Below are positions 78-38,312 of a DNA stretch of 64,000 nucleotides, one piece after another (positions within the stretch are counted from its first letter, which is position 1; each line of letters opens with the position of its first letter). The stretch spans positions 4,135 through 68,134 of the IMG/VR virus record IMGVR_UViG_3300015050_000931. The stretch is one strand, 5' to 3'. Made by a program: the position numbers and the translations under genes. The notes under the pieces are model-generated. The model searched no databases, was not told the origin of the DNA, and saw only the letters and a program-made list of their open reading frames with translations. The stretch comes from a virus (lineage: Duplodnaviria > Caudoviricetes).

Positions 78-359
78 TTGGCTTATATAGCTATTGATGA
101 TGAAACAAATGTAGCTGCTAATGAATACGCAAGGGGATACGTTCACAGTACGGCAGCGTATATGGGATATATAGAAGCTACAAAAGTAGAACGCAGGAAA
201 CAAATAAAATTACAAGAGAACTTTGATAGCCTTGTAAGTGCTTTAAAAGATTGTGTGGATATGATTAATAATAATTGTGATTGGACTAAATTTAACAGGG
301 AAGAAAATAGGACAGTTGAAGAAGCTAAACAACTTTTAAACCAAATTAACCAACTATAA
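78..359 (+). CDS. hypothetical phage protein
   Basis: 93-aa ORF, first of a run of closely spaced + strand ORFs. Confidence 0.6.
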   Translation: MAYIAIDDETNVAANEYARGYVHSTAAYMGYIEATKVERRKQIKLQENFDSLVSALKDCVDMINNNCDWTKFNREENRTVEEAKQLLNQINQL

Positions 360-370
360 AACTATATACC

Positions 371-718
371 ATGCCTATAAATATGTCAGTTGAATTTCCA
401 AAATTGGAAACAGAAAACCAAAAGTTAAAACGCTTATTGCATGACCTTACACCGGGAGGAAGTGAATTTTATAATAACCCTGAATATTGTGCTAAATGGA
501 TAAGGGAAAACAGGCAACAGGAAGCAAAGATTTTAAAAGAAATGGTAAAAGCTGCCAAAGATAAAAACGAAGTATTACAGGCAGATAATGAAAGACTTTT
601 AAATAGCCATAAATCAGCAATGTTAACCGCTATGGAATTTGGATATAAAGAATGTGAGAAAGGGAATAACTTAGATATGGCTTTTATAAACTTCAACAAA
701 GCACTACAAAACAAGTAA
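371..718 (+). CDS. hypothetical phage protein (coiled-coil)
   Basis: 115-aa ORF, A-rich leader, coiled-coil-like C-half. Confidence 0.65.
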   Translation: MPINMSVEFPKLETENQKLKRLLHDLTPGGSEFYNNPEYCAKWIRENRQQEAKILKEMVKAAKDKNEVLQADNERLLNSHKSAMLTAMEFGYKECEKGNNLDMAFINFNKALQNK

Positions 719-757
719 ACACTTAACCACTAAAAATTCATATTAAAATAAATAAAG

Positions 758-949
758 ATGAAACAAACATTAAGACAAGTTATTGAAATGATGCTGGAAG
801 ATTTAGGATATCGTCAAAAGATGCTTAATGCCAACATAAAGCAATATGTAGATGCTGGTAATCTTATGGATGCAGCTATTAATAAAATAAAATTTGATAC
901 CCTTGAAACTGTAAGGGTAAGACTTGAAGATTCATTATATAACCATTAA
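758..949 (+). CDS. hypothetical phage protein
   Basis: 63-aa ORF in the same gene run. Confidence 0.6.
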   Translation: MKQTLRQVIEMMLEDLGYRQKMLNANIKQYVDAGNLMDAAINKIKFDTLETVRVRLEDSLYNH

Positions 950-960
950 AAAATAAAATC

Positions 961-1341
961 ATGTTACTAACCATTTTACTTTGGGTTATAGGCTGTATTG
1001 CCTTAGCCTTTTTAAATGCCAAATTTTGGAAGCTAATGCCCGATACAGAAAGTAATGAGGGCAATGATGTAAAAGCTAAAATAAAGCCCTTATATGAGCC
1101 TATAAACAAGGGTAAATTAAACTGGATGGACTGGATAACTATTGTTGTTGTATTGGCTGTGTTGTTTAGCTGCTCACCTATGAAGTCAGGATATTACACA
1201 ATTAAAGAAGTAAGGGCATTAAATACTGTGGTATTAAAAGAAGTAAAAGGGGATTGGCACATACCGTCCGATACCTTAAAAGTAGGGGATAAAGTGTACC
1301 TGAAAAGAAGTAAAACCGATTCGCTAATTAATGTATGGTAA
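961..1341 (+). CDS. hypothetical membrane protein
   Basis: Two hydrophobic stretches (MLLTILLWVIGCIALAFL; WITIVVVLAVLFSC). Confidence 0.55.
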   Translation: MLLTILLWVIGCIALAFLNAKFWKLMPDTESNEGNDVKAKIKPLYEPINKGKLNWMDWITIVVVLAVLFSCSPMKSGYYTIKEVRALNTVVLKEVKGDWHIPSDTLKVGDKVYLKRSKTDSLINVW

Positions 1342-1382
1342 AACATATTAACTATTTCAATTAACCATTAAACTTAAAACAA

Positions 1383-1574
1383 ATGTTTGCACTACTCGTA
1401 AATCCCGAAAATTCATTGCCTACTATTGTCAATGTTAATTCTGATGCTTACTTTGATATGACCTTTCAAGGGTATCAGCCAATAGCAACAGGATACCGTA
1501 AACAGTTAGAAACTATTGAAGAAGAAATGCTATCTGAAATGTACGGGGATTTAGAATTAAACCAAAGTAATTAA
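1383..1574 (+). CDS. hypothetical phage protein
   Basis: 63-aa ORF preceded by TTAACCATTAAACTTAAAAC leader. Confidence 0.6.
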   Translation: MFALLVNPENSLPTIVNVNSDAYFDMTFQGYQPIATGYRKQLETIEEEMLSEMYGDLELNQSN

Positions 1575-1594
1575 CCAACTAAAAACAAAATATT

Positions 1595-1942
1595 ATGAGT
1601 AACGTAAAACGTATGTACAGGATAGAACAATTTGTAATGACAGGGGTAGTAAATGATATTGTATTAATGGCTGCCATGTCTAATGGTGGTAAGAAATACA
1701 TACCCCTTAAATACATGGCTGACTATGTAGAAACAGAAAGAATAAAGTACCCTACATTAACAGGAGATATATCTGTAAACTTAATTGGAGAAAACCACCT
1801 AACCATTGACAAGGGGGTAGAGAACCTATTAGCCATTACAGAAGTGGAGGTATTGGAGTTAATCCAAGAAGATTCCCCAACCCTAAACAGATACTCAAAC
1901 ACAGGCATAGCCAATGATGATAATAAAGAACTCCTAAATTAA
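1595..1942 (+). CDS. hypothetical phage protein
   Basis: 115-aa ORF with A-rich leader. Confidence 0.65.
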   Translation: MSNVKRMYRIEQFVMTGVVNDIVLMAAMSNGGKKYIPLKYMADYVETERIKYPTLTGDISVNLIGENHLTIDKGVENLLAITEVEVLELIQEDSPTLNRYSNTGIANDDNKELLN

Positions 1943-1965
1943 TTGCACATTATTTTGTACCTTTG
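1943..1965 (+). promoter_or_regulatory. Bacteroidota sigma-A-like promoter upstream of the cassette array
   Basis: TACCTTTG at 1958-1965 matches the TAnnTTTG -7 consensus; TTG at 1943. Confidence 0.5.
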
Positions 1966-1983
1966 AAATGATTGTGTATATTC

Positions 1984-2118
1984 GCATAACGGTTGCAAGT
2001 TTATTTAGTTGCCGAATTTAAAAACAAAATATTATGATAACAGATAAAGATTATTACGAAGCAAAAAAGTTGATTGCAAAATACGAAAGTATGCAATTGA
2101 ATAAACTTGATGTTAGCG
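1984..2118 (-). repeat. attC-like recombination hairpin A (135 bp)
   Basis: GCATAAC(1984)...CAAGTTTATTTAGTTGC / GCAATTGAATAAACTTG...GTTAGCG(2118). On the minus strand it reads CGCTAAC-5nt-GTTTATTC, i.e. the R''-L'' layout. Confidence 0.8.
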
Positions 2119-2273
2119 GTATGTTGGCTATGAGATTTAATAAGTGGATTAGCGAAAACAATTGGAGTGCTAATATCAATGGTAAAGGTTGGTTCAAAGG
2201 TAATAGTAGATTTTTTACAGATGCAGAACTTTGGGGAATGTGGTTAAGTAGCGATGATGTTAATTACCACTAA
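2034..2273 (+). CDS. cassette gene (cassette 3), hypothetical
   Basis: 79-aa ORF; starts inside the attC-A loop; its stop TAA is the TAA of the TAAC core of attC-B. Confidence 0.7.
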   Translation: MITDKDYYEAKKLIAKYESMQLNKLDVSGMLAMRFNKWISENNWSANINGKGWFKGNSRFFTDAELWGMWLSSDDVNYH

Positions 2274-2398
2274 CGAACAGGGCTTTGCGAAGGGCTGATG
2301 GCTTTGCACTTCCGACCCAAACTACTACTGCTGCTTGGCTTTGCAATTGGCTCAAAATTTATTCCGCAGCCAGCCTTTTGCAAAACCGCTTGTTATGT
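2268..2398 (-). repeat. attC-like recombination hairpin B (131 bp)
   Basis: CACTAAC(2268)...GGCTTTGCGAAGGGCTG / CAGCCTTTTGCAAAACC...GTTATGT(2398). Minus strand reads ACATAAC-AAGCG-GTTTTGCA. Confidence 0.8.
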
Positions 2399-2497
2399 GT
2401 AGTTGTGGGTGCTAATTGATGTCGCTGCTATGAAAAACTAAAGTTCGGCTGTATTATTTTTTTTGAAGCTGCGGAGCATGTATTTAAAATTATTAGT

Positions 2498-2788
2498 ATG
2501 AAAAATAAAAAACAAGAAGTAAGAATTGAACAAGAACAATACTTAGAACTTCAAAGATGCTTTAGTGAATTATTAAAGCAATGTACCGGAGTTAAATTTA
2601 AAATAAACCCGGAAGCATGGTACGATAATCAAGAAATAATGCAGCTACTTTTTATTAGTAAAAGAACTGCACAGCATTACAGGGATAGTAAATTAATATC
2701 CTTCTCACAAGTGGGTAACAAAATTTACTATAAAGGTGAAAATATAATTGCATTATTGGAAGGAAATTTTATAAAGAATAAATTTTAA
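2498..2788 (+). CDS. MerR/excisionase-like helix-turn-helix protein (HTH_17-like)
   Basis: YDNQEIMQLLFISKRTAQHYRDSKLISFSQVGNKIYY is typical of Bacteroidota HTH_17 proteins. Confidence 0.75.
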   Translation: MKNKKQEVRIEQEQYLELQRCFSELLKQCTGVKFKINPEAWYDNQEIMQLLFISKRTAQHYRDSKLISFSQVGNKIYYKGENIIALLEGNFIKNKF

Positions 2789-2791
2789 TAC

Positions 2792-3058
2792 ATGAGAAGT
2801 TTACAGCAACTAAGAAACCTATTGCTTGATATTATTCCTGAAATAAGGAGTGGTAAAATAGAAGTAAACAAGGCTAATGCTATTTGTGCAGCGACTAACT
2901 CAATAATAAATTTAACTAAGTTGGAAGTTGATTATTTAGGTTCGCAAGATGATGCGTTCAAGTCTGATTTTATTATTGAGCCTGTTGAGCAAATAGTAAA
3001 GGAGCTGGAAAACAAGCAGAAAGTTCCTTATGAGTTTAATAAAAACTTTAAAGACTAA
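2792..3058 (+). CDS. hypothetical phage protein
   Basis: 88-aa ORF, closely spaced to both neighbours. Confidence 0.65.
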   Translation: MRSLQQLRNLLLDIIPEIRSGKIEVNKANAICAATNSIINLTKLEVDYLGSQDDAFKSDFIIEPVEQIVKELENKQKVPYEFNKNFKD

Positions 3059-3852
3059 TGATTACCTGCAAAGCCTGTAATATAGAAAAAGATACCTCTA
3101 ATTTTTATATAAAAGATAAAAAAACTGGTAGGCTTTCTGGGAAGTGCAAGACTTGTGAAGCGCAAGAAAAAGGCATTAAGGATATTGGAAAACTTTCAGT
3201 ATCAAAAGAGCATCTGAATAACGGGAAAAGAAAGTGCTGCGACTGTAAAATAGTAAAACCAATTACAGAGTTTGTTAAAAACAAAAGTGTGAAAAGTGGG
3301 CATTCAAGCGTTTGTTATGACTGCTCAAAAGAAAGGGTTTATAAATATAGAAGAAACAGCAATAAAGAACTTGGTAGCCATTATTTAAAAAGGTTTGCAA
3401 TATCTAATTACGGTGTAAGGCATGAAGATGTAACTGACGAACTTTTAGAAATTGCAAAGCTGCACATACAAGCTAAAAGAAGCCTGAAACTGAATTTAGA
3501 TGGATTGGAATTTTCAACAATGCAGCAGTTTGCCGCCTATGTAAATAAAAAGTATGGTATTAGTGAACATTGTGTAAAAAAGAGACTTGATACGGGGCAT
3601 ACTGAAAGCGATTGTACTATTCCTGAATTTGACTTTAGAAGTCAATTTAGTTGCAAGTCCAGAGGTAAAGTATTAGTGACTGATATTAATACTGGTGAGA
3701 AAAGAATATTTACATCCCCTAAAAGGGTGATGGACGAAATGAATATAAGTAATGATGTTTTGGGCAGGTGCTTATCCACCGGGGAGATTAGAAAACCTTA
3801 CAATAATTCTAAGAATAAACAAACTTTAAAAATAGAATATTATGCAAACTGA
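3058..3852 (+). CDS. multi-zinc-finger protein with C-terminal NUMOD1-like DNA-binding domain
   Basis: CxxC pairs (CKAC, CKTC, CCDC, CYDC); C-terminal VLVTDINTGEKRIFTS..MDEMNIS resembles NUMOD1/HTH; no clear HNH catalytic motif seen. Confidence 0.55.
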   Translation: MITCKACNIEKDTSNFYIKDKKTGRLSGKCKTCEAQEKGIKDIGKLSVSKEHLNNGKRKCCDCKIVKPITEFVKNKSVKSGHSSVCYDCSKERVYKYRRNSNKELGSHYLKRFAISNYGVRHEDVTDELLEIAKLHIQAKRSLKLNLDGLEFSTMQQFAAYVNKKYGISEHCVKKRLDTGHTESDCTIPEFDFRSQFSCKSRGKVLVTDINTGEKRIFTSPKRVMDEMNISNDVLGRCLSTGEIRKPYNNSKNKQTLKIEYYAN

Positions 3853-4048
3853 AAAGAAAGAATTATCTACCGACCTTAAACTGGTTCGTACTGAATTAAA
3901 GGGTATATTATCAGATGTGAAAGACAGAAAAACTTCACTAAAAAGAGCAAACATTATAATCTATGCCTGCTCCAATATCACCCGTACCATTGTAACGGAA
4001 ATTTATCTTAATCAGATACCGGCTGATGATGAAATTAAAAACAAATGA
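3842..4048 (+). CDS. hypothetical protein, probable paralog of 2792..3058
   Basis: ILSDVKDRKTSLKRANIIIYACSNI resembles IIPEIRSGKIEVNKANAICAATNSI. Confidence 0.55.
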   Translation: MQTEKKELSTDLKLVRTELKGILSDVKDRKTSLKRANIIIYACSNITRTIVTEIYLNQIPADDEIKNK

Positions 4049-4133
4049 TGCTACGAAGCGTAATGTGTGGCTTGGGCAAAAAAAATAATACAGTTATCCG
4101 TCTGCCGCCAAATGGTATGCTGGTAACAATTAC

Positions 4134-4265
4134 ACATAACGGTAGGGCTTGCTGTTCGTTTGGGAATTTGAAAAACAAATGTTTAATAACTTAATAAAGT
4201 TGATATGAATACAAAAGATAAGGCTATGACTGTCAGCCCAAATGACAGCAAACCGATTGTTAGCA
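4134..4265 (-). repeat. attC-like recombination hairpin C (132 bp)
   Basis: ACATAAC(4134)...GCTTGCTGTTCGTTTGGG / CCCAAATGACAGCAAAC...GTTAGCA(4265), with one bulged base. Minus strand reads TGCTAAC-AATCG-GTTTGCTG. Confidence 0.8.
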
Positions 4266-4585
4266 GCAGTACGGTTGTTTCGTGTCCAAACTTTCCATAT
4301 TTCGGGGCTTCTTATCCTGATGCTGGATGTATAGATGGTCAATTATGGGATTTAGATAAATGCAATGATAACGGGCTTTATTCAAGTGGTGATAATCCGC
4401 CTTGCCCGTTCTGCAATACAGAAGCATTTATTGATTACCATACTGAAATTGACGACAAAGAATTGGAAGATATGAATAAAGATGATAGTTTGTCGTCAGA
4501 AGATAGAACGGAAATCCTAAAGTCAAATATGACGAAAGAAGATGCCACAAAGTTAGTCGAAGCCCTGAAATTAAAGTACAGTTAG
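4205..4585 (+). CDS. cassette gene (cassette 1), Cys-rich phage protein
   Basis: 126-aa ORF starting inside the attC-C loop; motif FGASYPDAGCIDGQLWDLD...CPFCN. Confidence 0.75.
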   Translation: MNTKDKAMTVSPNDSKPIVSSSTVVSCPNFPYFGASYPDAGCIDGQLWDLDKCNDNGLYSSGDNPPCPFCNTEAFIDYHTEIDDKELEDMNKDDSLSSEDRTEILKSNMTKEDATKLVEALKLKYS

Positions 4586-4591
4586 TATTGC

Positions 4592-4611
4592 TGCTAACAT
4601 TATGATTAGCG
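4592..4611 (-). other. attI-like simple core site
   Basis: TGCTAAC-attatg-ATTAGCG: two inverted binding boxes with a 6-bp spacer and no hairpin arm, 37 bp before the recombinase start. Confidence 0.6.
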
Positions 4612-4648
4612 AAGTTGATATGATAATCAATATCTTAAATATAAATTT

Positions 4649-5545
4649 ATGACACGATTTGAAGAACTGATAAATAAATTTAAAAGAGAATTACAGCTAA
4701 GAAAATATGCGGATAGTAGTATAAAAACTTATTCAGATTGCTTATGCGTTTTTCTTCGTGCCATGAATGGTAAGCCAAAACCATTACCCATTGAATGTGT
4801 GAAAGATTTTTTACTAACTATTAAAAATACAAATTACCACAAACAATTTACTGCAACTATCCATCATTTTTATAGCTTGGTTTTAAATACGCCTTTATCA
4901 TTAAAAGATATACCATATCCACGTAAGACCGATTATATGCCTGAAATATTTTCAATACAGGAGATTTACAGATTAATAAGTAGCTACGAAAATATTAAAC
5001 ATAGGTGTATTATGCAGTTATTTTATTCCTGTGCTTTAAGGATTGGAGAATTGCCAGTTATTGAATTATCACATATCAATTTTGATAGAAGTATTTTGCG
5101 TGTTAAAAATGCCAAAGGGTTTAAAGATAGAGATGTACCTATACCTGCCGATACCTTGATTTTAATAACATCATACATTGATAAATATAAGCCTATTAAA
5201 TGGCTGTTTGAAGGGCAGTATAAAGAACAGTATTCAGTTCGTTCAATACAACAAATATTTTGGCAAGGAGTAAATCGTATTGGCATTAAAAGGGCTGTCC
5301 GACCACACTCATTAAGGCATAGCAGAGCCGTTCATCTTAAAGAAACAAATGTAGATATAAAAGACATTTCTGATTTTCTTGGGCATTACCATATATCCAC
5401 TACTGCTGACTTTTATTTGAAGTTATCTAAATTTTCTTTGGGCAATAGAATTGCTAATGCAGATACTATTTTAAGCAAATTATCTTTACCGAAAATCACA
5501 TTACCATATGAACAAACATTTAATTTGGTTGCAAACCAATCGTAG
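4649..5545 (+). CDS. tyrosine recombinase, integron-integrase/Xer-like
   Basis: SAM4-like N-terminus (LRKYADSSIKTY); catalytic motifs LRIGE, KGFKDR, HSLRH, LGH, STTADFY. Confidence 0.9.
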   Translation: MTRFEELINKFKRELQLRKYADSSIKTYSDCLCVFLRAMNGKPKPLPIECVKDFLLTIKNTNYHKQFTATIHHFYSLVLNTPLSLKDIPYPRKTDYMPEIFSIQEIYRLISSYENIKHRCIMQLFYSCALRIGELPVIELSHINFDRSILRVKNAKGFKDRDVPIPADTLILITSYIDKYKPIKWLFEGQYKEQYSVRSIQQIFWQGVNRIGIKRAVRPHSLRHSRAVHLKETNVDIKDISDFLGHYHISTTADFYLKLSKFSLGNRIANADTILSKLSLPKITLPYEQTFNLVANQS

Positions 5546-6279: not shown

Positions 6280-6492
6280 TTATTTAGTTTCTTTATTTTG
6301 AGAAAGCAAAGTCCCACATATACCTAAAACCCCACCACCGATAACCTTCAACATATCCATTATTACTGCCCCTGCTTCAACTGATATTGGATTACCTGTA
6401 ACCAATCTAATGGCTATCATTCCAATTAAACAAATAGGAATAGTAAGCGTTAAAATAAATAAGCACCATTCTACTGCTTTCCAGTTTTTCAT
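6280..6492 (-). CDS. small two-TM protein (holin-like)
   Basis: Two hydrophobic helices, adjacent to the endolysin. Confidence 0.5.
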   Translation of the reverse strand: MKNWKAVEWCLFILTLTIPICLIGMIAIRLVTGNPISVEAGAVIMDMLKVIGGGVLGICGTLLSQNKETK

Positions 6493-6502
6493 AAAATGTG
6501 TA

Positions 6503-6979
6503 TTATTTTAAAAGTATAAAGGCAGCAATACCTAACCCTGCTGTACCTAAAATACCTATTACTGTTTTTCTTTTTTGTCTTTTTAGTAGCTTGTTTTGGT
6601 GTTTCATTTCTTTGGTTGCTAAATCCCTTTGCTCTATAAGATTGGCTACTTCTGCTTTGTATGTTTCTACTATTCTTGCTTGTGCTGTGTCTTTATCACC
6701 ATGTATGGATATGATGCTGTCCTTTATGGCTATGCGTTGGTTTAAGAAAGCTATTTTTTCGTTTAATAACTCTACTCTTTGCTCACAGATTTTACCTTTC
6801 TCAATCAACTTTGCAGCATCTCTTAACTTTGCGTTTGGAACAAGGGTTGCATCAATAGTCGTTGGTTGGCTGTGGCTCAAGGTTGTTAAAGTAGTTAAGC
6901 AAACCAGCATCATCAAGCGTATTAATTTCTTTTGCTTTTTCATTGTATTTTTTTGGTAGGTTGTTAAGCCTGTTATCAA
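6503..6979 (-). CDS. spanin-like/exported coiled-coil lysis protein (probable start 6943)
   Basis: Signal-like N-terminus, coiled coil, hydrophobic C-terminus; overlaps the upstream gene. Confidence 0.5.
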   Translation of the reverse strand: MITGLTTYQKNTMKKQKKLIRLMMLVCLTTLTTLSHSQPTTIDATLVPNAKLRDAAKLIEKGKICEQRVELLNEKIAFLNQRIAIKDSIISIHGDKDTAQARIVETYKAEVANLIEQRDLATKEMKHQNKLLKRQKRKTVIGILGTAGLGIAAFILLK

Positions 6980-9099: not shown

Positions 9100-9402
9100 T
9101 TAATTAAGTTTTTTACCACAGTTATGACAAGTTCTTGTGTTGCAATCTCTATCAGGACAATACATCGCTGTTTCTATAATAATTAAGTGCTTACATTGGT
9201 CAGGTAGGATAAGAGTATCCCCCCATATTTTTTCTTTAAAAATACCAGTTGAACTTGAATCAAACATTAAAGTAATTGCTTGTGGTATATTATTAGCTGT
9301 ATCAATATAAACCAAATTACCGGGTTCACGATTACATATATGGGCATCAGGCTTTACTACAACACAGCTTGAAAATAATAAGATGATTAAAATATATTTC
9401 AT
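9100..9402 (-). CDS. lipoprotein
   Basis: MKYILIILLFSS-C lipobox-like signal. Confidence 0.6.
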   Translation of the reverse strand: MKYILIILLFSSCVVVKPDAHICNREPGNLVYIDTANNIPQAITLMFDSSSTGIFKEKIWGDTLILPDQCKHLIIIETAMYCPDRDCNTRTCHNCGKKLN

Positions 9403-13979: not shown

Positions 13980-16900
13980 TTATCTGTTTTTAATGGATTC
14001 TCTTAGTTGTTTATTATTTTCTTCAATTTCTGATTCTTCGGGTGTTTTATCTATAAAATCTTCGGGTGTTTTGTATTGTGGGTATTCTCTTAAAAATAGT
14101 TCTTTACCTCTTTTAAAACCTTCCTTATAAAGTATCTCTAAGTTCTTTAATTTTTCTTCATCTGATAGTTCTGAATAGGTTTTATTGCTTCCATCAAAGG
14201 TTGCCATGTTGTTTATGTATGGAGCAATTAAGTTCTTTCTTTGTTGTCCTACAAATTCTTCAAGTCTTGCAGCTTCTTTTGTTGGAAGTTTTACTATTTC
14301 ATCTCCACGCTTTATTTCTGGTTTAACTGCTGGTGGGAAAAAAGCAATATTATCAGTACGTTTTGCATCATTGTATATTGGTCTTGCGAAGGCATCGTTG
14401 TTGGCTTTACTTACTCCAAAAAACTGTAACGCTTTGTCATTTTTTGGCATCTTTTCACCCCAAATGCTAATCCTTGATGGTGGGTATTGCCCTGTTAAAT
14501 TTCTTAATACTGATGAACGGGTAAGCATACTGTTCTTTAATTCAGATAAGAAATCATCTCCTTTATTTTTATTAACGTATGGTAATTGTGCCTTTGATAT
14601 TTGAGATAAAGATGCAGGATGAACTACGTTTGCAAACATATTTATCAGGTTAACCCCGTAGCTTTGAAAATCCCCTCTTTCAATAGAAGTTAGTAAAGAT
14701 GAAGTGTTACCAAATACCCCTTGATTAAGGTCTTTTAAAGCATCTACTTCCATCCCCCCTAATGCAACATCCCAAAAATCTGCTTGTGCTTCTTTTTGTT
14801 CGGGTGTCATTTCTTCATTTTTCCTTTCAATAGCATTTGCCATTGTACCCCAATGACCAAACCAACGTAGTTGAACATTCAATCCATTCTTTACTTTATC
14901 GGGGTCTTCTCCATTTATAGCCGCCCACATCTTATCTACGTTTATTGTTCCTTGTTGTTCGTATGCCGTTTCTCCTTCCCTTTCTTTTTTTGTATCATCC
15001 CCTGTATTTGAAGTATTAATTATTCCCTGACCAACCAATGACATAACTACTGCTCTTGTTGCAATACCTACTGCTCCATGTGCAAACCAATACTTAGCTT
15101 CATTCAGGTCTTTTGCTGCTGAATTATCTCCTTTATTTCTTTTAGCATAAGCCTTACCTGAATATATCATTGCTTGTAAAAATGCAATTTCAGGATTAAC
15201 TAAATTGTAGTAACTCCAATAAGCATTAGAAGGTATTTTTATGTATGGAGAAACTGTTACAGATTTTAATAACTGCTGCGTACCTTCCCCAACTCCCAAT
15301 TTATTTAATTGCCCAAATGCACTTGATAAAACATCATTCAGCATATTATCTTGTTGGAATGTTGACCTTTGTCCTTCCTTAATTATAATATCTCTTATGT
15401 AGTCTGCTTTCTTACCTGCGTCTGCATCGCTTAATCCTTTTGCTTTGTATGCCCTATATGCTTCTTCTCTTGGAAAGTCAATAAACAAATCGTAATCAAT
15501 ATCTTTTAATCCTAACGCTTTTGCAAATGCTGCTGCCTGTGCGCCCTCTGCTGCAAACCTCTGTGGCTTATCACCTAAATTTAATGTACGTGCAACAACT
15601 TCTGCTGCTATCCCTTGTGGAGAGCCTTGTAAAGCCTTATCTATTATTTGTCCTTTAGTTAGTTTCTTTTCTTTGGTTACAAAATGCTTCCACAAATCTT
15701 TTATGGAACTAAATGGACGTATTTGCTGACCTTGAATTTCCTTTGCTGTGTAGTCTGGTCTATTCAATCCTGTAAAAAACTGTTGAAATGCCTCTTTTGT
15801 TCCAAGTCCAAGTTTCTTAAAGAACTCTACTTGTGCCTGTGCTGAAAATATATTTGTTTCAGGGGAAACTTTACCACCACTACCAATTTGAATAGCTTTA
15901 TCAACACCACTTTTTACTACTCCAACTGGAAGTCTTAATGTAGTTTGATTCCATACGTTATAAACAGGGTTATTTAATAAAGAAACAACACCTAATGTAT
16001 TTAACTGAATCATTGACGTAAGCCTTTGCATAATGTTTGGCTTACTATAAAGTAGGTTTGTTAATTCCTTTTGCGCTTTGGCTGCTTTTAAGGATACAGC
16101 CATATATTCTTTACGGGATTGTTGTGTTCTTTCAGTACGTGCTTTTTGGGCAGCATCGTCAACTTTATTAGCTTCTGCAACCAACTCTTTTAATTTAGTT
16201 ACTTCTTCTGCTGTTAGTTCTGACCTGCCCGTTATATCTGCAATTATTTTTTTAAAGTCTGCATAATCCAACCCACCATTTTCCACTATCTTTTCAAATG
16301 ACTTTCTTACTACATCTTCTTTTTGGCTATCGTTTAAGCCTTTTAGTTTTTTTCTGAAACGGTCTAATATTTTTGCTTTTATTTCTTCATCGGTGAATTT
16401 TCTTTTTTCTGTCTTATCCTTTAATTTTTCTTCCCATTCATTTCTGAATTTTTCTTTATCCCATGTATCGTGTCCTAATTTTTCTGAAATATAGTCAATA
16501 GCATCTTCAACAAGTTTTGCCACTTTCTCCCCTGCATGGTAGGCTTTTTTCATACCTTCTAATGCTGCTGTAATTACTTGTGGTGGAATGATAGTTGAAT
16601 ATGCTGCACCACCTTGAAACTTTGATTTAGCCGCATCAAAAGCATCATCAACTTTTTTAATCCTTGCTTTCCTGTTTTCAGCACGTTCCTTTGCCATTTC
16701 ACCTTTTGCATACTCTTTAGCTTCTGCTTCAAAATTCTCATCCTTCAACATTTCATCAAAAAACTCTTTCCATGATTTCTCTTTTGGTTTTGCCCACTCA
16801 TCAAATTCTGTTTTCCTTTTGGCATTTTCAATCATTGCTATCCCCAAAGGAGATTTTTTGTAGAAGTAGTTTATGGCAGAAGTAAACCTACCGCCCTTCC

Positions 16901-19900
16901 TTGCAGCTTCATCATACTTAATACCTACCTCTGCAAACTTTTTAGTAAATTCTAATTTTTCTTCGGGAGTTTTAGCTTCTGCTTCCATCTTAGCCAAACG
17001 GTTAAGGCTTTCAGCATATATTAAAGAATTTACGTCACCGTCAAACTTCTGTGCTTCTGCCAACAGAACTGCATCCTCAATACCGTATTCATCAATAACT
17101 GATTTAGCCACTTCTTCGGCTTCTTTTTGGCTTTTAGTGTCATATTTCAAACCTTTCTCCCTAAAACCTATTTTTGATGCTTCGGGTACATTTTTAGCAC
17201 TTTCTAAATGATTTAATACTCCTTTATCATTCAGCCTATCTTTACCCTTACCTTCCCCTACTGGCTCTGTTGGTTCTTTTGGAGGTTCTTTTTTGCCGCC
17301 TTCTGCTTTAGATGTAGGCTCACTAACCATAGGTTCTGCTGCGCTCTTTTCTTCTGCGGACTTGGTATTGCTGGTAACTTTGGCTTCTTCATTTTTTTGT
17401 TTTTGTATAGGCTCTACTACCTCTTTCTTTTTATTTTTTGATTCTATTAATCCATTTTCGTTAAATTCAAATCCTTTAGGGGCAAACATATTTTCATTTG
17501 CAAAATCAACTTCATCTTTGGTTAACGGGGTATTCCTATCCAGTTTTTCATCAATCGTTGCCTGTATAATTTCTTCATTGGTTAACCCGTATTCCTGTTG
17601 CAATTCTTTTTGCCTCGCCTCAAAATCGGCATTTATCTTTTCAGTTTCAGCCCTACTTTTTTCTTTATTCTCTTTGGATAAGTTAGCTAATCCATCAACA
17701 ACTTGCGTTCTTAATAATTCATTTTCAGCCGCAAACTTTGCACCTTCTTCTTTAACTGATTCGGGAATAGCCTTTTTAAATGAACCATCCTTTTTAATAT
17801 ACTTAGCTGACCTTTCTACAAAATCCTGATAGCGTTTTTTGAAATCATTTACCTTATCCATAAAACCACCACTTACTTTGCCACCTTCAAAGGCTGGCTC
17901 TACTACCTCTTGTGGTTGTTCTTTGGATAGGGATTGTTCTACTGCTTTTACAAGTTCAGGATTGCTACCATCTTCTTTTGCCTTGTGGTATGCTTCTGCA
18001 ATATTTTTTGGGTTAACTTCTTTAATGGCAGAATTGTCTAAAACAATATAGCTTTTTGATTTTCGTTCAATAAATTTCATACCCCCACTGCCGCCCGCTG
18101 GATGATAAGGTTCATAAATAATCCCGTCATATCCTTTCTGCTTTAAAGCATCTGATACTTTCTTTGGTGCTAATCTATCAAGTTTATTCGCAGTTATAGA
18201 AACGGATTGAACATCATCATGCTTATTGCCATCTTTATCATAATTACTTATTGCTCCATATTCCTTTTCTAATTTTAAATCTTTAATTAATTGTTGCACC
18301 CTTTCAAAATCTGCTTCGCCTTTATACCATACGCCTTTCGTTAAGTCAAGCGGGTCTTTCAAATCAATTATTGCAGGGTGGTTTTTGCCTTTATCCCCAC
18401 TATAAAAAGATGCGTAGCCTTCATCGGTAAAATGTGTACCAAAGTCTAACTGCATTTTTGAAGGTCTATCTTTTCCTTCCTTTGGCTTACCAAAAATCAA
18501 TTCCTTATTCTTACTACCATGAAAAGTAACATTGGGCATCTTCTGTAATTCGGTATTACCTTCCAAAGCCTTAGCGGTACTTTCCACATCTTTCAATGGG
18601 TTATCTACTACTACATCACTTACTACAGAAGGAGTTTTTGTTTTTTCAGGTGGAAACATTTCTATTGCCTTATCAACAACTTCTTTACCATATTTTCTTG
18701 TAACTGCATCTAATTGTGGTTCTGGTGCTGATTCGTCTAAAGGCAACCTGTTTCCTTCCCCATCCCTACCCAAACCTAATGCTTGGTCTGCTATCTCTCT
18801 TAATGCTAATTCAGGATTAGATTTAGATGACATAAACTCCATAGCAGGTATCTTACCTTCCAAAGTATTTATTATATCTGCCGGATTTTCTTTTGATACG
18901 ACTACAGCATCGGATTCTTTGGGTGCTATATCCCTACGGTTCATTTCTGTTTTCTCAAATGATTTACGGGTTTCAGCTTCATTGCTTAATGCTTCCAATT
19001 CCGCTTCATAGTCCAATTTCTCCTTTTCGGGCAATTCAATAGCTTTACCTTCCGCATCTTTTTTAGGCTCTAATTTGCGCTCTAAAACTCCTATACGGTC
19101 ATTTAATTGCTTTTCAGTTGGTGGTTCTAAAATTAAACCTCTTGTATGGTCTGCTACCAATGCTGTTTTTTCTGCTGCTGCGGCTTGTCTTGGAGGTAAA
19201 GAACTTTTACCTTTAGTAGCTTCATCCTTAATTACTGTTTGATAAAGGTAATCTGCTTTTTGTTTTTCGCTTAATGATTGAGGTAATGATTGGTAAGCCT
19301 TTTCAGAACTTTCAATTAATGATTTCCTATGGTCATATTCAGCCAGTGTAACTTTGCCTTCTTTCCTCAATCCATCCAATACTGAAATATATTCCTTTGG
19401 TTTTGCTCCAAATTGCAGTAAAGAACTTTTTTGTAATTCTGTTGGCGACTTGTATCCTGTCTGCCCTAATCCAACACCCATAATACCAAAGTTACCTATA
19501 CCTATTAATGACTGCTTAAAGTTTTGTTCCCTGTCAATTTCAGTATCATAAATCTCTGCCTTTGCTTCATTAGCTAAGTTCATAGCTACTTCAAATTCTG
19601 CCCCTGTTTTTAAGCCGCCTGCAAATTGTTTAGGTATTGCTTTAGCCCTGTCAACAAACGCCTGCTTCATTCCCTTTAATCCTTTTGGAACTCCTTTATC
19701 CAATACTTTTTGAATAGCATCGTCTGACATGGATAGGATAAGTTTTCCTGCGCTTGTCTTAGGGTTAAGCATGGCTTTTATCTTCTCTGGTGTACTTGCA
19801 CCTGCCATAGCCAAAGAACTTATTGCAGTCATGCCCATAGCTTCTTTGTATGCTTCACTTTGAGATTTACCACTTAATAAAGCACTTGCATATTCATCGT

Positions 19901-21740
19901 GAAAACTTGTGGCTGCTGCTGCTGTAAATGTTGATACGAATTTCCTTGCTGCCCCTGCTGTTGCTCCACCACCCGTAGCCGCTTCCAATGCAATAAATGG
20001 AAGCAAAGTAGTACCTAAATCAGATAAGCCATAAAGTATTGAACTTGGATTAAGATTAAACTTGCCGCCTTTTATCGGAACCCTACCAAACTTATCTGTG
20101 TTCTGTTTTAGAAGTTGGTAAACCTTCATTTCTTTTTGGTCATCATTAAGCAAACTATTACCCTTAACTTCATCAATTTGCTTTTGTAATTCCGGCTCAA
20201 TTACCATTGTATCAGTAAGCAAAGATTTGTTCTTATCTGTCTTATGGTATATGCTGTTATCTTCAAGATTCTCTCCCATTATAGACAACTCTCTTAAAGT
20301 ATTACTTGCATCTGACATGAACGGAGTGCTTACCGCTTCCCATATACCTTGTCCTGTATTTTTAATAGCTTTAAATGCTGTACCACCTACATAATTTATC
20401 CCTGATATTTTCTGTCCCATTATTTCCTGTAAGGCATCATCTACCTTATCTTCAATTCTATCAGGGTATTTTGTATCAAGTTCATTTTGCTTTTGGGTAA
20501 GTTCTTCTTGCTTCTTTTCTAATTCAGTAGCCTTTGATAATTGTTCATCAGTTAATCCACCATATTCATTGGCTATCCTTTTCAGATTATTAAGTTCTTC
20601 TGTTACTGAATTTTGTTGTAATCCAATACCTGTTTCTTCTGCTGTCTGCATTAAATGATTATACCCTTTTAAAGCATCTCCTTCTAAGTCTTTGGGATTA
20701 ACTTTTAATCTATCGTATTGTCTTGCCTTTTCGGGTGCTACATCTTCTAAGTACTGAATACCTAACTGTGCATCTTCATTCAGATACTTACTTTCAGGAC
20801 TACCTTCTATTGTTTTTTTGAAATTATTTCTGTACGCACTACCATATACCTTACTTACTTCTACTGCAAAGTTTTCAAGTATCTTATCTCTATTTTCTCC
20901 ACCATAAAGTTTAATATCTTTTGCAAGGGATTGTATGGCTGTACGTTGGTTAGTAAAATCTCCACTACCTGTAAATTCTGGTAATTTATCAACACTATTT
21001 TTTATTCTTTTATAATCTTCGGGAGTAATACTGCCATTATATACATTCTTTAAAATCTCTTGCTCTAACCCATCTCTCCATTTTATATTTGCAAGTTTAC
21101 GTTGGTATAATGGGTTGTTTTCTGACCTATCCCTTAACAATTCAGGTTTTGCAGCTTCTAATACTTCGTCAGGAATATCTTTTGTTTCATCATAAAGTTC
21201 GTCAAGGTCAATACCTGCTATTGCAGCCCTTTCTTTTAAACCTTTCGCTTCTTTTCTTTTATATTCATCAGGAACTTGTGTAAGTAATTGTCCCCCCTTA
21301 CCGCTTGACGGCATAGATACTTCTTTGGTAGCTTCGCTTAACTGCTTATATTGTTGTGAAAGCCTAAACGGGTCTTCAATCGTTTCCCCATTTGGAGTAG
21401 TATATAATTCAATCGTTTGTATTTCTTCTCCACCCACGCCATTGGATTGGGCATTGCCAGCCGCCAAAGAACTTTCCTCGAAATTGATTGAGCCAACTTT
21501 TTTTTTTACATCCGAAGATAACTTACTTTCAAAGTCCTGATAAGTTCCTAATTCAAATTCTTTACCTATATGGTCGTATAGTGCTTTTCTTTTTGTTGGG
21601 TCTTTTAATTTTTTATCAAAATCATCATAAGTACCTAAATCATATTTTTTAGATACAGCATCATATAAAGCCCTCTTTTTGGGAATAGGGTCTTGCTGTT
21701 GTTCCGGCTCTTGTACTTCTATTTCTTCTAATTGTTCCAT
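13980..21740 (-). CDS. giant internal virion/ejection protein (2586 aa) with ART-PolyVal-like domain
   Basis: Size and position after the small ejection genes; FHGS...FGTHFTD..YASFY...IDLKDPL...GYDGIIY...YIVLDNSAIK segment. Confidence 0.7.
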   Translation of the reverse strand: MEQLEEIEVQEPEQQQDPIPKKRALYDAVSKKYDLGTYDDFDKKLKDPTKRKALYDHIGKEFELGTYQDFESKLSSDVKKKVGSINFEESSLAAGNAQSNGVGGEEIQTIELYTTPNGETIEDPFRLSQQYKQLSEATKEVSMPSSGKGGQLLTQVPDEYKRKEAKGLKERAAIAGIDLDELYDETKDIPDEVLEAAKPELLRDRSENNPLYQRKLANIKWRDGLEQEILKNVYNGSITPEDYKRIKNSVDKLPEFTGSGDFTNQRTAIQSLAKDIKLYGGENRDKILENFAVEVSKVYGSAYRNNFKKTIEGSPESKYLNEDAQLGIQYLEDVAPEKARQYDRLKVNPKDLEGDALKGYNHLMQTAEETGIGLQQNSVTEELNNLKRIANEYGGLTDEQLSKATELEKKQEELTQKQNELDTKYPDRIEDKVDDALQEIMGQKISGINYVGGTAFKAIKNTGQGIWEAVSTPFMSDASNTLRELSIMGENLEDNSIYHKTDKNKSLLTDTMVIEPELQKQIDEVKGNSLLNDDQKEMKVYQLLKQNTDKFGRVPIKGGKFNLNPSSILYGLSDLGTTLLPFIALEAATGGGATAGAARKFVSTFTAAAATSFHDEYASALLSGKSQSEAYKEAMGMTAISSLAMAGASTPEKIKAMLNPKTSAGKLILSMSDDAIQKVLDKGVPKGLKGMKQAFVDRAKAIPKQFAGGLKTGAEFEVAMNLANEAKAEIYDTEIDREQNFKQSLIGIGNFGIMGVGLGQTGYKSPTELQKSSLLQFGAKPKEYISVLDGLRKEGKVTLAEYDHRKSLIESSEKAYQSLPQSLSEKQKADYLYQTVIKDEATKGKSSLPPRQAAAAEKTALVADHTRGLILEPPTEKQLNDRIGVLERKLEPKKDAEGKAIELPEKEKLDYEAELEALSNEAETRKSFEKTEMNRRDIAPKESDAVVVSKENPADIINTLEGKIPAMEFMSSKSNPELALREIADQALGLGRDGEGNRLPLDESAPEPQLDAVTRKYGKEVVDKAIEMFPPEKTKTPSVVSDVVVDNPLKDVESTAKALEGNTELQKMPNVTFHGSKNKELIFGKPKEGKDRPSKMQLDFGTHFTDEGYASFYSGDKGKNHPAIIDLKDPLDLTKGVWYKGEADFERVQQLIKDLKLEKEYGAISNYDKDGNKHDDVQSVSITANKLDRLAPKKVSDALKQKGYDGIIYEPYHPAGGSGGMKFIERKSKSYIVLDNSAIKEVNPKNIAEAYHKAKEDGSNPELVKAVEQSLSKEQPQEVVEPAFEGGKVSGGFMDKVNDFKKRYQDFVERSAKYIKKDGSFKKAIPESVKEEGAKFAAENELLRTQVVDGLANLSKENKEKSRAETEKINADFEARQKELQQEYGLTNEEIIQATIDEKLDRNTPLTKDEVDFANENMFAPKGFEFNENGLIESKNKKKEVVEPIQKQKNEEAKVTSNTKSAEEKSAAEPMVSEPTSKAEGGKKEPPKEPTEPVGEGKGKDRLNDKGVLNHLESAKNVPEASKIGFREKGLKYDTKSQKEAEEVAKSVIDEYGIEDAVLLAEAQKFDGDVNSLIYAESLNRLAKMEAEAKTPEEKLEFTKKFAEVGIKYDEAARKGGRFTSAINYFYKKSPLGIAMIENAKRKTEFDEWAKPKEKSWKEFFDEMLKDENFEAEAKEYAKGEMAKERAENRKARIKKVDDAFDAAKSKFQGGAAYSTIIPPQVITAALEGMKKAYHAGEKVAKLVEDAIDYISEKLGHDTWDKEKFRNEWEEKLKDKTEKRKFTDEEIKAKILDRFRKKLKGLNDSQKEDVVRKSFEKIVENGGLDYADFKKIIADITGRSELTAEEVTKLKELVAEANKVDDAAQKARTERTQQSRKEYMAVSLKAAKAQKELTNLLYSKPNIMQRLTSMIQLNTLGVVSLLNNPVYNVWNQTTLRLPVGVVKSGVDKAIQIGSGGKVSPETNIFSAQAQVEFFKKLGLGTKEAFQQFFTGLNRPDYTAKEIQGQQIRPFSSIKDLWKHFVTKEKKLTKGQIIDKALQGSPQGIAAEVVARTLNLGDKPQRFAAEGAQAAAFAKALGLKDIDYDLFIDFPREEAYRAYKAKGLSDADAGKKADYIRDIIIKEGQRSTFQQDNMLNDVLSSAFGQLNKLGVGEGTQQLLKSVTVSPYIKIPSNAYWSYYNLVNPEIAFLQAMIYSGKAYAKRNKGDNSAAKDLNEAKYWFAHGAVGIATRAVVMSLVGQGIINTSNTGDDTKKEREGETAYEQQGTINVDKMWAAINGEDPDKVKNGLNVQLRWFGHWGTMANAIERKNEEMTPEQKEAQADFWDVALGGMEVDALKDLNQGVFGNTSSLLTSIERGDFQSYGVNLINMFANVVHPASLSQISKAQLPYVNKNKGDDFLSELKNSMLTRSSVLRNLTGQYPPSRISIWGEKMPKNDKALQFFGVSKANNDAFARPIYNDAKRTDNIAFFPPAVKPEIKRGDEIVKLPTKEAARLEEFVGQQRKNLIAPYINNMATFDGSNKTYSELSDEEKLKNLEILYKEGFKRGKELFLREYPQYKTPEDFIDKTPEESEIEENNKQLRESIKNR

Positions 21741-29661: not shown

Positions 29662-30315
29662 TTATGAAGCCTTATTTCCAGCCGGTAAATCATCTTGGAT
29701 TGTGTCTTGTGGTAATCCTAACCTATCTTTTAACCTTGCTAATACTTTGGTAAATATCATTTCAATAGCATCATCAGGAATATTTGTTGTGTCGGTTAAT
29801 GACGTAACTCTTGTACTTGGCATTTCAATATAACAATCCTGATTTAATAAAGAACTTCCATCGCTTGCTGCCAACCATATTTTTTGTCCTGTTACCCAAT
29901 ACCTAACTCCAAATTGCATTGGCATTGCCATTCTCCTTCCAACTCTTTTAGCTTTTATAGCAATACAATCTCTACCTTGTCCATTTACTGAATTAGCAAA
30001 ATAAACCCTGTTAATACTATAACCTAACGGTAATGATAATGGTGGTTGTGGTAAAGTGCTATACCAATTCTTAGTTACGTTATCCTGCGTTAATGCTGCT
30101 AATTGGAATTGCAGGATATACGATTCAGGCATCTCTAAAGTTCCCAACACTTTAGCCCCTCCATAAACCTGTCCAATAACCCCACTTGACATCGCCTCGT
30201 TGATATAAAGCAATAATTCATTTCTCGTTACTGAAAAATCAGTTCCGGGGTAGTCGTTATTTATATGCTTTTCAAGGCGTATAATAAGCTGATTCCATGT
30301 GTACCCTAATGCCAT
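29662..30315 (-). CDS. head-tail connector/ring protein
   Basis: Position; IPDDAIEMIFTKVL C-terminal pattern. Confidence 0.55.
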   Translation of the reverse strand: MALGYTWNQLIIRLEKHINNDYPGTDFSVTRNELLLYINEAMSSGVIGQVYGGAKVLGTLEMPESYILQFQLAALTQDNVTKNWYSTLPQPPLSLPLGYSINRVYFANSVNGQGRDCIAIKAKRVGRRMAMPMQFGVRYWVTGQKIWLAASDGSSLLNQDCYIEMPSTRVTSLTDTTNIPDDAIEMIFTKVLARLKDRLGLPQDTIQDDLPAGNKAS

Positions 30316-30785: not shown

Positions 30786-31163
30786 TTAAGTAAGCGTTAA
30801 TAAATATAAGCATTTTGCTCCAACTCCTGATAAACTCTGTGCAGTATTTTCAATATCACAATACTTTTTTTCTTCTGCCCAATCTTCTATTTGGTAAGCA
30901 AACTCTTTTACCAATGTAGCTAACTTAACTGCTGCTGCATGGCTGTATTCAGGAATTTCATCAATCTGCAATTTACCTATTCTTTTACCATCTTGATACC
31001 CTATTATTAATTCACAAATACTATCTCTGAATGAGAATAATTCTGTGTATAAAAAATCAAGTGCCTTATGTTCTGCAAAAGACCTTGTATCGTGATGAAA
31101 TTTTTGTGCTACGTCTGCAAACCAAAATAACTTATTCTGTATTTGCTCTGATGTTAGTGCCAT
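30786..31163 (-). CDS. ferritin/Dps-like four-helix bundle (DUF5856-like)
   Basis: FHHDTRSFAEHKALDFLYTELFSFRDSICE motif. Confidence 0.6.
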   Translation of the reverse strand: MALTSEQIQNKLFWFADVAQKFHHDTRSFAEHKALDFLYTELFSFRDSICELIIGYQDGKRIGKLQIDEIPEYSHAAAVKLATLVKEFAYQIEDWAEEKKYCDIENTAQSLSGVGAKCLYLLTLT

Positions 31164-37956: not shown

Positions 37957-38312
37957 TACTTTCTATCTTCCGCTATTGTATCAACAAATGGTTTACGTAT
38001 CTTATCGTTTTCTTCATCACCTGTAACCCCTGCTGTTGCCTTTAAAAATTTAAGAGTTTCTGCTAATGGAGTAATTGCAGACCAAATTGTTTTTAGCCTT
38101 TCCATTGTTTTATCTTTTGGGTCAGATAAGTCTATATCAGATATTTGAGTGTTATCTAAGGCATCTGATAAGTCAGACATATTTTTGTTCAAAGAATAAT
38201 ACAGTTTTGCATCCCCTTTTACTCCAAGAGATTCTAACTTAGATTCAAGTGATTGTATTCTTAAATCTTTTTTTTCTGATTCTGTTTTTGCAGGTTTATA
38301 ATCTTCTGCCAT
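37956..38312 (-). CDS. probable terminase small subunit
   Basis: Helical 118 aa directly upstream of TerL; positional call. Confidence 0.5.
   Translation of the reverse strand: MAEDYKPAKTESEKKDLRIQSLESKLESLGVKGDAKLYYSLNKNMSDLSDALDNTQISDIDLSDPKDKTMERLKTIWSAITPLAETLKFLKATAGVTGDEENDKIRKPFVDTIAEDRK

Follow-up and report, generated by a model that had tools for sequence, protein, structure and literature searches.

Can a tailed phage carry its own platform for shuffling gene cassettes? This question is raised by the locus at 1987-5545 of the window, i.e., of the whole 64,000-nt stretch of DNA analyzed here, which corresponds to bases 4135-68134 of the IMG/VR record IMGVR_UViG_3300015050_000931 (Duplodnaviria; Caudoviricetes). 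The record comprises 68,134 bp, is rated 100% complete in IMG/VR, has a G+C content of 34%, and contains a gene set typical of a tailed phage. In the initial annotation, the locus was described as an integron-like system consisting of three hairpins, an attI-like core site, and a tyrosine recombinase. We compared the window with the loci around recombinase homologues of 48-85% identity, which are designated below by L numbers. This comparison indicates that the locus is very probably a site-specific cassette system of some kind. We also consider it probable that the system is run by the recombinase and works through folded hairpins, as an integron-like system of a Bacteroidota phage.

Hairpins, the proximal site and natural exchange of cassettes

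The locus includes three attC-like hairpin elements on the plus strand, each bounded by TAAC and GTTA boxes: element 1 at 1987-2115 (boxes at 1987-1990 and 2112-2115; 129 nt), element 2 at 2271-2395 (2271-2274 and 2392-2395; 125 nt), and element 3 at 4137-4262 (4137-4140 and 4259-4262; 126 nt). With 3-nt flanks added, the lengths are 135, 131, and 132, respectively. Arm complementarity was scored for all 150 TAAC...GTTA pairs spaced 90-170 nt in the whole 68,134-bp genome. Ranks 1-3 of the 150 belong to the three hairpins, all inside 2.3 kb, with scores of 13 (element 3), 12.5 (element 1, rank 2), and 12, the next pair scoring 9.5. The hairpins thus hold as initially annotated, both in position and in length, and so does the reading of each on the minus strand as nnnTAAC, 5 nt, and GTT. 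Inverted repeats that arose by chance in AT-rich intergenic DNA next to an ordinary phage integrase gene would agree with the unremarkable z-scores of the predicted folds (given below). A chance origin is nevertheless highly improbable in view of this ranking, the family of such hairpins in many contigs, the covariation of their arms, and the exact junctions, and we regard it as refuted.

The three elements are not equally typical. Element 1 is AT-rich and degenerate. Element 2 is a typical family member with the plan TAACG-spacer-GGGCTTTGCGAAGGGCTG ... CAGCC(A)GCCTTTTGCAAAACC-GCT-TGTTA, and its half-sites match the profile derived from the family with E-values of 0.003 and 0.0002. Both arms of element 3 match this profile, and its left flank AACAATTACACA is common to elements in L006 and L015. 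The loop of element 1 contains the start of the ORF 2034-2273, and that of element 3 the start of the ORF 4205-4585.

The recombinase-proximal core site is located at 4585-4615 (plus strand). It reads GTATTGCTGC-TAA|C-ATTATG-ATTAGCGAAG and has no inverted partner; its core, TGCTAAC-ATTATG-ATTAGCG, lies at 4592-4611, just before the recombinase gene transcribed away from the array, as the initial annotation had placed it. The site is conserved in relatives at 38-59 nt upstream of the recombinase start codon, and it aligns with a single hairpin left arm over the flank, TAAC, the 6-nt spacer, and TTAGCGAAG. By its position adjoining the recombinase gene and its predicted crossover at AA|C, it is an attI-type platform site.

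Otherwise identical phages differ to the left of this site. Rightward from the C of xAAC, the sequences of L011 and L012 are 100% identical for 3 kb; leftward, 3 bases agree before the similarity drops to that of random sequence. The corresponding values for L003 and L004 are 99.9% identity over 3 kb on the right side and 4 shared bases on the left, again followed by the random level. The breakpoint lies likewise at the proximal xAAC in L014, L015, and L017. The contigs of several relatives stop no more than ~110 nt upstream of the proximal site, and one starts at its ATAAC, as expected of an assembly graph at a variable junction.

Both ends of an exchanged segment were observed in L175, a prophage in a 1.5-Mb bacterial contig, and L176, a 13-kb contig from a different sample. 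Their left flanks (919 nt) and right flanks (1041 nt) are 100% identical, and the difference is confined to the interval between them: the single cassette of L175 combines a hairpin with a 58-aa ORF and a C5 DNA methylase, and L176 has two cassettes with a hairpin each. The left breakpoint is at the TAACG of the first hairpin and the right one at the xAAC of the proximal site, and in the L175 cassette the end pair GTTC...GAAC travels together. The L175 recombinase and its site are ~5 kb away from the edge of the phage region and are flanked by phage genes on either side. Because the site is intact in the middle of a prophage, it is not the attP of lysogeny, and this reading was rejected. Judged from all these junctions, the family recombines at, or a few bases from, xAA|C, both in the proximal site and at the left ends of hairpins. 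The initial annotation had named invariant gene order among relatives as evidence that would count against a shuffling platform. Gene content upstream of the recombinase varies beside identical downstream sequence, so this objection does not apply, and the natural junctions support the platform.

The ends of the cassettes carry a further signature. We compared the 12 nt after the GTTA of each hairpin with the 12 nt before the TAAC of the next site to the right. These cassette ends have on average 8.2/12 complementary identities, with at least 9 in 21 of 32 pairs, vs. 4.2/12 and at least 9 in 1 of 25 when the same right flank is compared with the left flank of its own hairpin. Random flank pairs gave a mean of 4.24, with 1.8% at 9 or more. 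In the window, GTTAGCAGCAGTAC of element 3 matches GTTAGCAGCAATAC of the proximal site (reverse complement), and GTTATGTGTAGTTGTG of element 2 matches GTTATGTGTAATTGTT to the left of element 3; the right flank of element 1, GTTAGCGGTA, agrees after GTTA with the reverse complement of the element 2 left flank, GTTAGTGGTA, at 6/12 positions. When the ends were joined in silico, 11 of 12 cassettes gained 5-10 kcal/mol in predicted fold stability. The mutual complementarity of cassette ends implies a form in which these ends meet, i.e., a circle joined at TAA|C.

On the evidence of these comparisons, the exchanged units run from one TAA|C to the next. The window array then consists of three plus-strand cassettes: A at 1990-2273 (284 bp, with element 1), B at 2274-4139 (1866 bp, with element 2), and C at 4140-4597 (458 bp, with element 3). 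The ends of cassette B are complementary at 10/12 positions (2396-2407, TGTGTAGTTGTG, vs. the reverse complement of 4125-4136, TGTGTAATTGTT). Those of cassette C are complementary at 14/15 (4258-4272 vs. 4585-4599), and its predicted circular junction folds at -26.8 kcal/mol vs. -17.8 in the array. The cassette boundaries and the TAA|C crossover proposed in the initial annotation match both this end complementarity and the breakpoints between otherwise identical phages.

Cassette B also occurs elsewhere. Metagenome evidence was limited to contigs running on into unlike sequence, and uncovered parts of the window were disregarded. Contigs from four runs of four other studies (wastewater and aquatic) match cassette B at 2281-4143, the long pieces with 1-2% differing letters, and continue into unlike sequence at both hairpin junctions. 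The left continuations end in GGCATATAAC-GGTTGC, GCATTTAAC-GTTTGGC, and TTGCACATAAC-GTTTGC. In one contig, the right continuation after TAAC is the left arm of a methylase-type hairpin known from L003 and L017.

The distal boundary of the array was assigned to 1975-1989 (plus strand), where the left flank TGTATATTCGCA is followed by TAA; it is presumed to be the left half of the original unoccupied platform site. The half-site profile has no match farther left than this boundary in the genome. The sequence TTAGCGAA, which forms the right half of the recombinase-proximal site, nearly recurs in inverted form as TTCGCATAA, save one extra A, a similarity that could be due to chance. This mirroring of the distal flank with the right half of the proximal site was found in the window only, and not in L003, L006, L008, L010, or L175.

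Selection on the hairpin stems

Hairpins of the same kind are located upstream of the recombinase homologues in arrays of 1-5 (+/- paired half-site matches). The half-site profile gave 65 matches in 80 kb upstream of these genes vs. 2 in 152 kb downstream (p=9e-28), and all 14 distinct recombinase loci having at least 1 kb of upstream sequence contain at least one hairpin. The left arm follows the plan ATTGCnnn-TAAC-G-N4-8-GGGCTTKGCGAAG-NNNNNN and the right arm the plan NNNNNN-CTTTTGCMAAACC-N3-T-GTTA-nnnGCAGTAC. A cassette as a whole starts with a hairpin of ~125 nt (TAACG-spacer-stem...loop...stem-TGTTA) and finishes with ATTGCnnnTAA. The element lengths form two classes, of about 72-107 and 118-133 nt, plus one element of 193 nt.

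The stem statistics rest on half-site alignments and a length-matched alignment. For 54 length-matched elements, 90.3% of stem cells are paired vs. 76% in shuffles, and 148 cells have double changes vs. 45 in shuffles. The covariation score is 0.318 vs. 0.084 in shuffles, with 0 of 500 shuffles as high and slid controls at 0.073 or less. In a local-alignment test, the true partner outranked every other arm in 55 of the 80 non-redundant elements. An earlier fixed-offset test of the distal stem, which was too crude, placed just 17% of true pairs above the 95th percentile, and RNAalifold returned no structure for the first MAFFT alignment, in which the arms were out of register. On these alignments, the hairpin stems are under selection for pairing.

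The arms are also asymmetric in a constant manner. In 80 of 80 elements, AAC is followed by G on the left arm and by A on the right arm; fixed mispairs on the plus strand are G:T at three pairs and C:A at one. Transitions yielding a wobble number 141 on the plus strand vs. 64 on the minus strand, extra bases are mostly on the left arm (16 vs. 6), and the plus strand folds better than the minus strand by 2-8 kcal/mol. The plus strand has AAC at its 5' end and is also the sense strand for the recombinase gene, which is how the recombinogenic bottom strand of an integron is placed relative to intI. In the folding of each strand suggested in the initial annotation, the plus strand came out as the more stable one, and the in-array fold energies did not exceed those of shuffles. 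In their predicted fold, the elements have the defining form of attC sites: imperfect palindromic arms with AAC/GTT R boxes, an unpaired spacer followed by a bulged second stem, and a variable loop.

All ORFs in the arrays of the window and its relatives lie on the recombinase strand and point towards the recombinase. Of 87 first ORFs, 39 have their start within a hairpin, in the loop; expression signals are therefore probably supplied by each cassette itself. The hairpins might be primarily expression elements (promoter, 5' leader, translational control, or processing signals in plus-strand RNA with G:U pairs) of early and DNA-modification genes, the shuffling being due to homologous or illegitimate recombination at repeats and the recombinase serving dimer resolution or integration. 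Shuffling of this kind has been proposed for promoter/stem-loop cassettes in T4-type phages. Besides the starts in loops, this explanation would suit the wobbles, which favour the transcribed strand, the absence of a recombinase from most hairpin-bearing phages, and the failure of an integron integrase on a related site (both described below). It does not account for arrays lying strictly upstream of the recombinase wherever that gene is present, for breakpoints exact at xAAC with a variable side lacking shared homology, for a proximal site that is a lone half-element fixed beside the recombinase gene, or for cassette ends that pair across 0.3-2 kb. Moreover, if the transcript starts in the loop, as in one model, the two arms are not on one RNA. 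We therefore regard a primary role in expression as quite unlikely.

Two other classes of repeats were considered and dropped. The hairpins are not miniature inverted-repeat transposable elements (MITEs), as their interiors are unrelated and contain gene starts. They share with invertons the inverted repeats around a short segment with expression signals and the tyrosine recombinase nearby. An invertible promoter does not fit, however: the arms are imperfect, with fixed indels, different spacers, and non-identical crossover regions, and relatives vary by replacement of whole gene units, not by inversion.

An Xer-like recombinase and a putative folded-strand pathway

The gene at 4649-5545 (plus strand) encodes a tyrosine recombinase of 298 aa (Pfam Phage_integrase, 5.5e-30, plus Phage_int_SAM_4) and points away from the array. 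The catalytic residues R-K-H-R-H-Y correspond to R131, K156, H220, R223, H246, and Y256 and are invariant in an alignment of 27 homologues. Among the NCBIfam models, the archaeal-type XerA has the best score (164 bits; the cutoff of 220 is not reached); XerC (106 bits, cutoff 335) and XerD (104 bits, cutoff 330) are both below the Xer family cutoffs. The integron integrase models TIGR02249 (105 bits, cutoff 265) and PRK15417 (79, cutoff 435) each match in two stretches. The nearest PDB structures are XerA-type (4a8e and 5hxy). IntI4 of Vibrio (2a3v) aligns in two pieces (query 12-167 and 200-255 to 10-171 and 247-302), and at the IntI-specific insertion there are 32 query residues vs. 75 in IntI4, i.e., ~43 residues are missing. 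Because the integron-integrase score is below the cutoff and the IntI-specific insertion is missing, the protein is classified by its sequence as Xer-like and not as an IntI-family integron integrase. The nearest recombinases in cultured phages are those of Polaribacter phage Leef_1 (35% identity) and Cellulophaga phage Ingeline (32%). A scan of viral contigs with a single protein query returned nothing, whereas an alignment-based scan did recover homologues.

Integrons are the textbook case of a recombinase joining a folded single strand to a duplex site, an ability tied to one integrase clade with a special insertion and described in bacteria and, recently, in archaea. The phage locus resembles them in several respects: (i) a recombinase gene is accompanied by an adjoining double-stranded platform site and an array of imperfect AAC...GTT hairpins, (ii) the AA|C end is on the strand that is the recombinase sense strand, (iii) in each element, an asymmetric unpaired spacer separates the basal stem from a second stem with bulged bases, which is capped by a variable loop, (iv) the cassette ends are mutually complementary like core and inverse core, and the arrays vary beside a constant platform, and (v) the element lengths are broadly attC-like, attC sites being 57-141 nt long. 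It differs in its Xer-like recombinase without the ~40-residue IntI insertion; in cassette genes that are co-directional with the recombinase and often start in the loop, whereas integron cassettes are promoterless and read from Pc; in the long box of the second stem, ~13 bp (GCTTKGCGAAG / TTTTGCMAAAC); in the marking of the hairpin strand by fixed G:T and C:A pairs besides bulges; and in its carrier, a double-stranded DNA phage. The clade of the recombinase and the orientation of the cassettes place the locus outside integrons proper, and we call it integron-like because the recombinase is not of the IntI family. Of the intI-attI-attC layout read in the initial annotation, the arrangement stands, being conserved in relatives with exact junctions, and the IntI-family integrase does not.

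A second likeness is to Xer/dif systems. The recombinase is nearest to XerA-type enzymes, and the proximal site has the dif-like format of two arms plus a 6-bp centre. Cassette variation, however, breaks at this very site, which has many relatives; a role of the recombinase in dimer resolution there is possible. Xer enzymes act on the folded single-strand attP hairpin of CTX-phi, which has a mismatched centre, and the pdif modules of Acinetobacter are gene modules bounded by Xer sites. In contrast to Xer/dif, the phage enzyme is phage-encoded and scores below the Xer cutoffs, hairpin arrays rather than a single dif lie beside its gene, the cassette ends pair, and neither FtsK nor a host dif is apparent at the phage locus.

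An Xer-like enzyme without the IntI insertion would also fit cassette exchange between ordinary double-stranded sites, with excision, insertion, or swapping of cassettes between co-infecting genomes. The left arm (ATTGCnnnTAAC-N6-9-TTnGCGAAG) would then serve as a direct-repeat copy of the proximal core, with two-strand exchange across the spacer, and the right arm and the folding would be incidental or serve expression. The proximal site does align with the entire left arm, including the GCGAAG box. The junctions of cassette B elsewhere, located on the left after the spacer, at 2281, and on the right at TAAC, fit an overlap segregating either way. Exchange of this kind explains neither why the distal stem covaries nor why wobbles and bulges are conserved with a strand asymmetry, and it gives no reason for the complementarity of a cassette's right flank to its own far end. 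In addition, the spacer differs in length and sequence between partner sites, and classical tyrosine recombinases tolerate spacer differences poorly. Overall, we hold purely double-stranded exchange to be unlikely.

For the folded-hairpin reading, we infer both the single-strand mechanism and the activity of the recombinase. By analogy with integrons, the recombinase would excise a cassette as a circle, in which the cassette's own two ends would complete a basal stem of ~14 bp beneath the hairpin. The predicted circle junctions are GCTGCTAA|CGGTAGGG for cassette C and ACACATAA|CGAACAGG for cassette B. The plus strand, with AAC at its 5' end, would fold, its identity and orientation being marked by the conserved G:T wobbles, one C:A mismatch, 5'-arm bulges, and an asymmetric internal loop. 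In integrons, the folded bottom strand recombines by single-strand exchange with replicative resolution; at the phage locus, the strand-asymmetric wobbles and the plus-strand stability are indirect hints of such a process. The folded site would recombine with the double-stranded platform site or with another hairpin, and cassettes would be inserted, deleted, or reordered in this way.

Several points weigh against this pathway. (i) No circle, excision scar, or enzyme activity was observed. (ii) The single-strand DNA fold energies of the hairpins in the array are no better than those of dinucleotide shuffles (z from -1.9 to +0.6). (iii) Element 1, a weak member, is missed by the family-derived half-site (nhmmer) profile. 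(iv) The left junction of cassette B elsewhere, at 2281, is seven bases inside TAA|C. (v) The insertion of IntI grips extrahelical attC bases, and since the phage recombinase is without it, recognition of a single-strand hairpin is not a given. (vi) The EndoVII/HNH-like gene of cassette B could move DNA by another route. (vii) The recombinase is present in 4 of 35 whole hairpin-bearing viral records, and in 1 of the 16 that are at least 90% complete; the hairpins without one may act in trans at co-infection, be relics, or have a regulatory role. (viii) An integron integrase failed on a phage site of the same plan (see below).

The last two points concern a wide set of phages. A scan with the left-arm pattern returned at least 120 viral contigs, and 53 of the 80 loci examined have bona fide paired hairpins. 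With so few hairpin-bearing phages encoding the recombinase, the hairpins must persist or work without a recombinase in cis. They parallel the integrase-less attC clusters of bacteria (CALINs), which outnumber integrons. Among 85 non-redundant first cassette ORFs, a sample biased by the arm pattern that fetched most of the loci, we found 21 N6_N4 methylases, 5 C5 methylases, 3 of Dam type, 2 MT-A70, 1 Mom, and 2 similar to PAPS reductase. Thus ~37% of the first cassette genes are for DNA modification, nearly all of them methyltransferases (31 of 85 plus one Mom). Three paralogous N6_N4 methyltransferase genes occupy the hairpin array of L011 (IMGVR_UViG_3300020036_002727, 280-4165); two of them have their starts within paired hairpins, and the third is preceded by a solitary left half-site. 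The benefit of cargo exchange is likely to be a rapid swap of anti-restriction functions among co-infecting phages.

Integrons and attC clusters in phages, including those of Polaribacter phage P12002L, have been reported earlier (Qi et al. 2023, PMC9892861). The P12002L clusters, with methyltransferase cargo and no cognate integrase, were read as stray integron components usable by bacterial IntI (PMC9892861). One of their sites, P12002L_attC1, was predicted by HattCI; of the six phage attC sites tested with IntI1, it alone was not recombined (PMC9892861), a failure that fits a site made for a different enzyme and proves nothing. Its primer sequence corresponds to one of at least five short minus-strand hairpins that we found by eye in this phage (L177, NC_028924; ~30040-30100, 30900-30990, 32200-32290, 38060-38140, and 38880-38950). 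These hairpins are 60-75 nt long, follow the plan ATTGCnnn-TAACG...TTGTTA, and lie upstream of genes that are mostly methyltransferase and Mom-like, one being unannotated; the half-site profile gives weak matches only. The phage is virulent and lacks recombinase homologues at E<=1e-20. The window locus shares with the P12002L clusters the plan of the hairpins and the methyltransferase cargo of its family, and differs from them in longer elements, gene starts in the loop, the phage's own recombinase, a platform site, and natural exchange. A full-text search of the literature yielded no account of an Xer-like phage recombinase associated with an array of hairpin cassettes. Phage-borne attC sites are not wholly unprecedented; the part absent from the earlier report is a dedicated non-IntI phage recombinase with its platform site.

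Among the cultured phages with the nearest recombinases, Leef_1 (L053, MT732473) has one hairpin at 6598-6774 that follows the G/A rule and includes G:T wobbles, as well as a site beside the integrase (~6945-6975) whose left flank matches the right flank of this hairpin. A second candidate in Leef_1 (6399-6594) fails the G/A rule and was dropped, and no convincing hairpin was found in Ingeline (L054).

We see about even chances that these loci represent a second integron-type lineage, independent of IntI or ancestral to it, in which an Xer-like enzyme without the IntI insertion joins folded single-strand hairpin cassettes to a double-stranded platform. Bacteroidota phages would thereby draw on a communal cassette pool, made up mostly of DNA methyltransferase and other anti-restriction genes and spread through many phage genomes without the enzyme. 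If so, the hairpin-cassette strategy arose more than once or predates the IntI insertion, and the origin of integrons becomes experimentally approachable. The same system would explain in concrete terms how the well-known mosaic, hyperplastic early regions of phage genomes come about, and by which route phages exchange counter-defence genes, the methylase cargo defeating host restriction. As the hairpins occur in well over fifty viral contigs, their covariance model would be a new annotation tool for phage accessory genes, and Leef_1, a cultured phage with one matching hairpin, is a possible experimental system.

Cargo of the window cassettes and other features of the phage genome

The cargo of cassette A is a 79-aa ORF at 2034-2273 with no Pfam or PHROG match. 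Its stop codon TAA (2271-2273) is at the same time part of the next TAAC box, and a crossover at TAA|C would thus leave this ORF closed at any destination. Cassette C carries a Cys-rich ORF of 126 aa at 4205-4585, which belongs to phrog_20542, a family of unknown function.

Cassette B contains four plus-strand ORFs. The ORF 2498-2788 encodes an excisionase-like HTH_17 protein, 2792-3058 and 3842-4048 are small unknowns, and 3058-3852 encodes a Zn-ribbon protein similar to EndoVII, HNH, and Lar, with a weak NUMOD1 match. All four are enclosed by a perfect 16-bp inverted repeat, with its left arm at 2449-2464 (CTGTATTATTTTTTTT) and its right arm at 4078-4093 (AAAAAAAATAATACAG). One metagenome contig fuses 2485 to 4062 and omits the cargo; the ends of cassette B can therefore carry other cargo, and the cargo seems to be exchangeable while the cassette ends stay constant. 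At 60-90 nt 3' of some hairpins, ahead of the first gene (window 2457-2478; L175, ~9115-9135; L176, ~1735-1750), a T-run precedes G(A/T)(A/G)GCTGCGGAGCA; this motif may be a common leader or promoter of one cassette type.

Relatives of the recombinase were found in wastewater and freshwater viromes and in metagenome-assembled genomes (MAGs) of Sediminibacterium and Ferruginibacter. As these belong to the Chitinophagaceae, the host of the phage is probably a member of the Bacteroidota. A relative also occurs on a 3-kb contig of a Bordetella-labelled MAG, which is probably mis-binned. No Rfam family matches anywhere in the window, and the sole blastn match of the region among cultured phages is a weak one of 155 nt in a crAss-like phage.

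The integron-like locus is directly followed by a gene for a GH19 lysin. Within the structural region, a minus-strand ORF of 2586 aa extends over 13980-21740 of the window. At its ends, the record has a perfect inverted terminal repeat of 123 bp with abundant GGGG runs (TGTTTTAAGGGGGTATTTAGGGGC...), the part in the window being 63878-64000; it could be a genuine telomere-like end or an assembly artefact.

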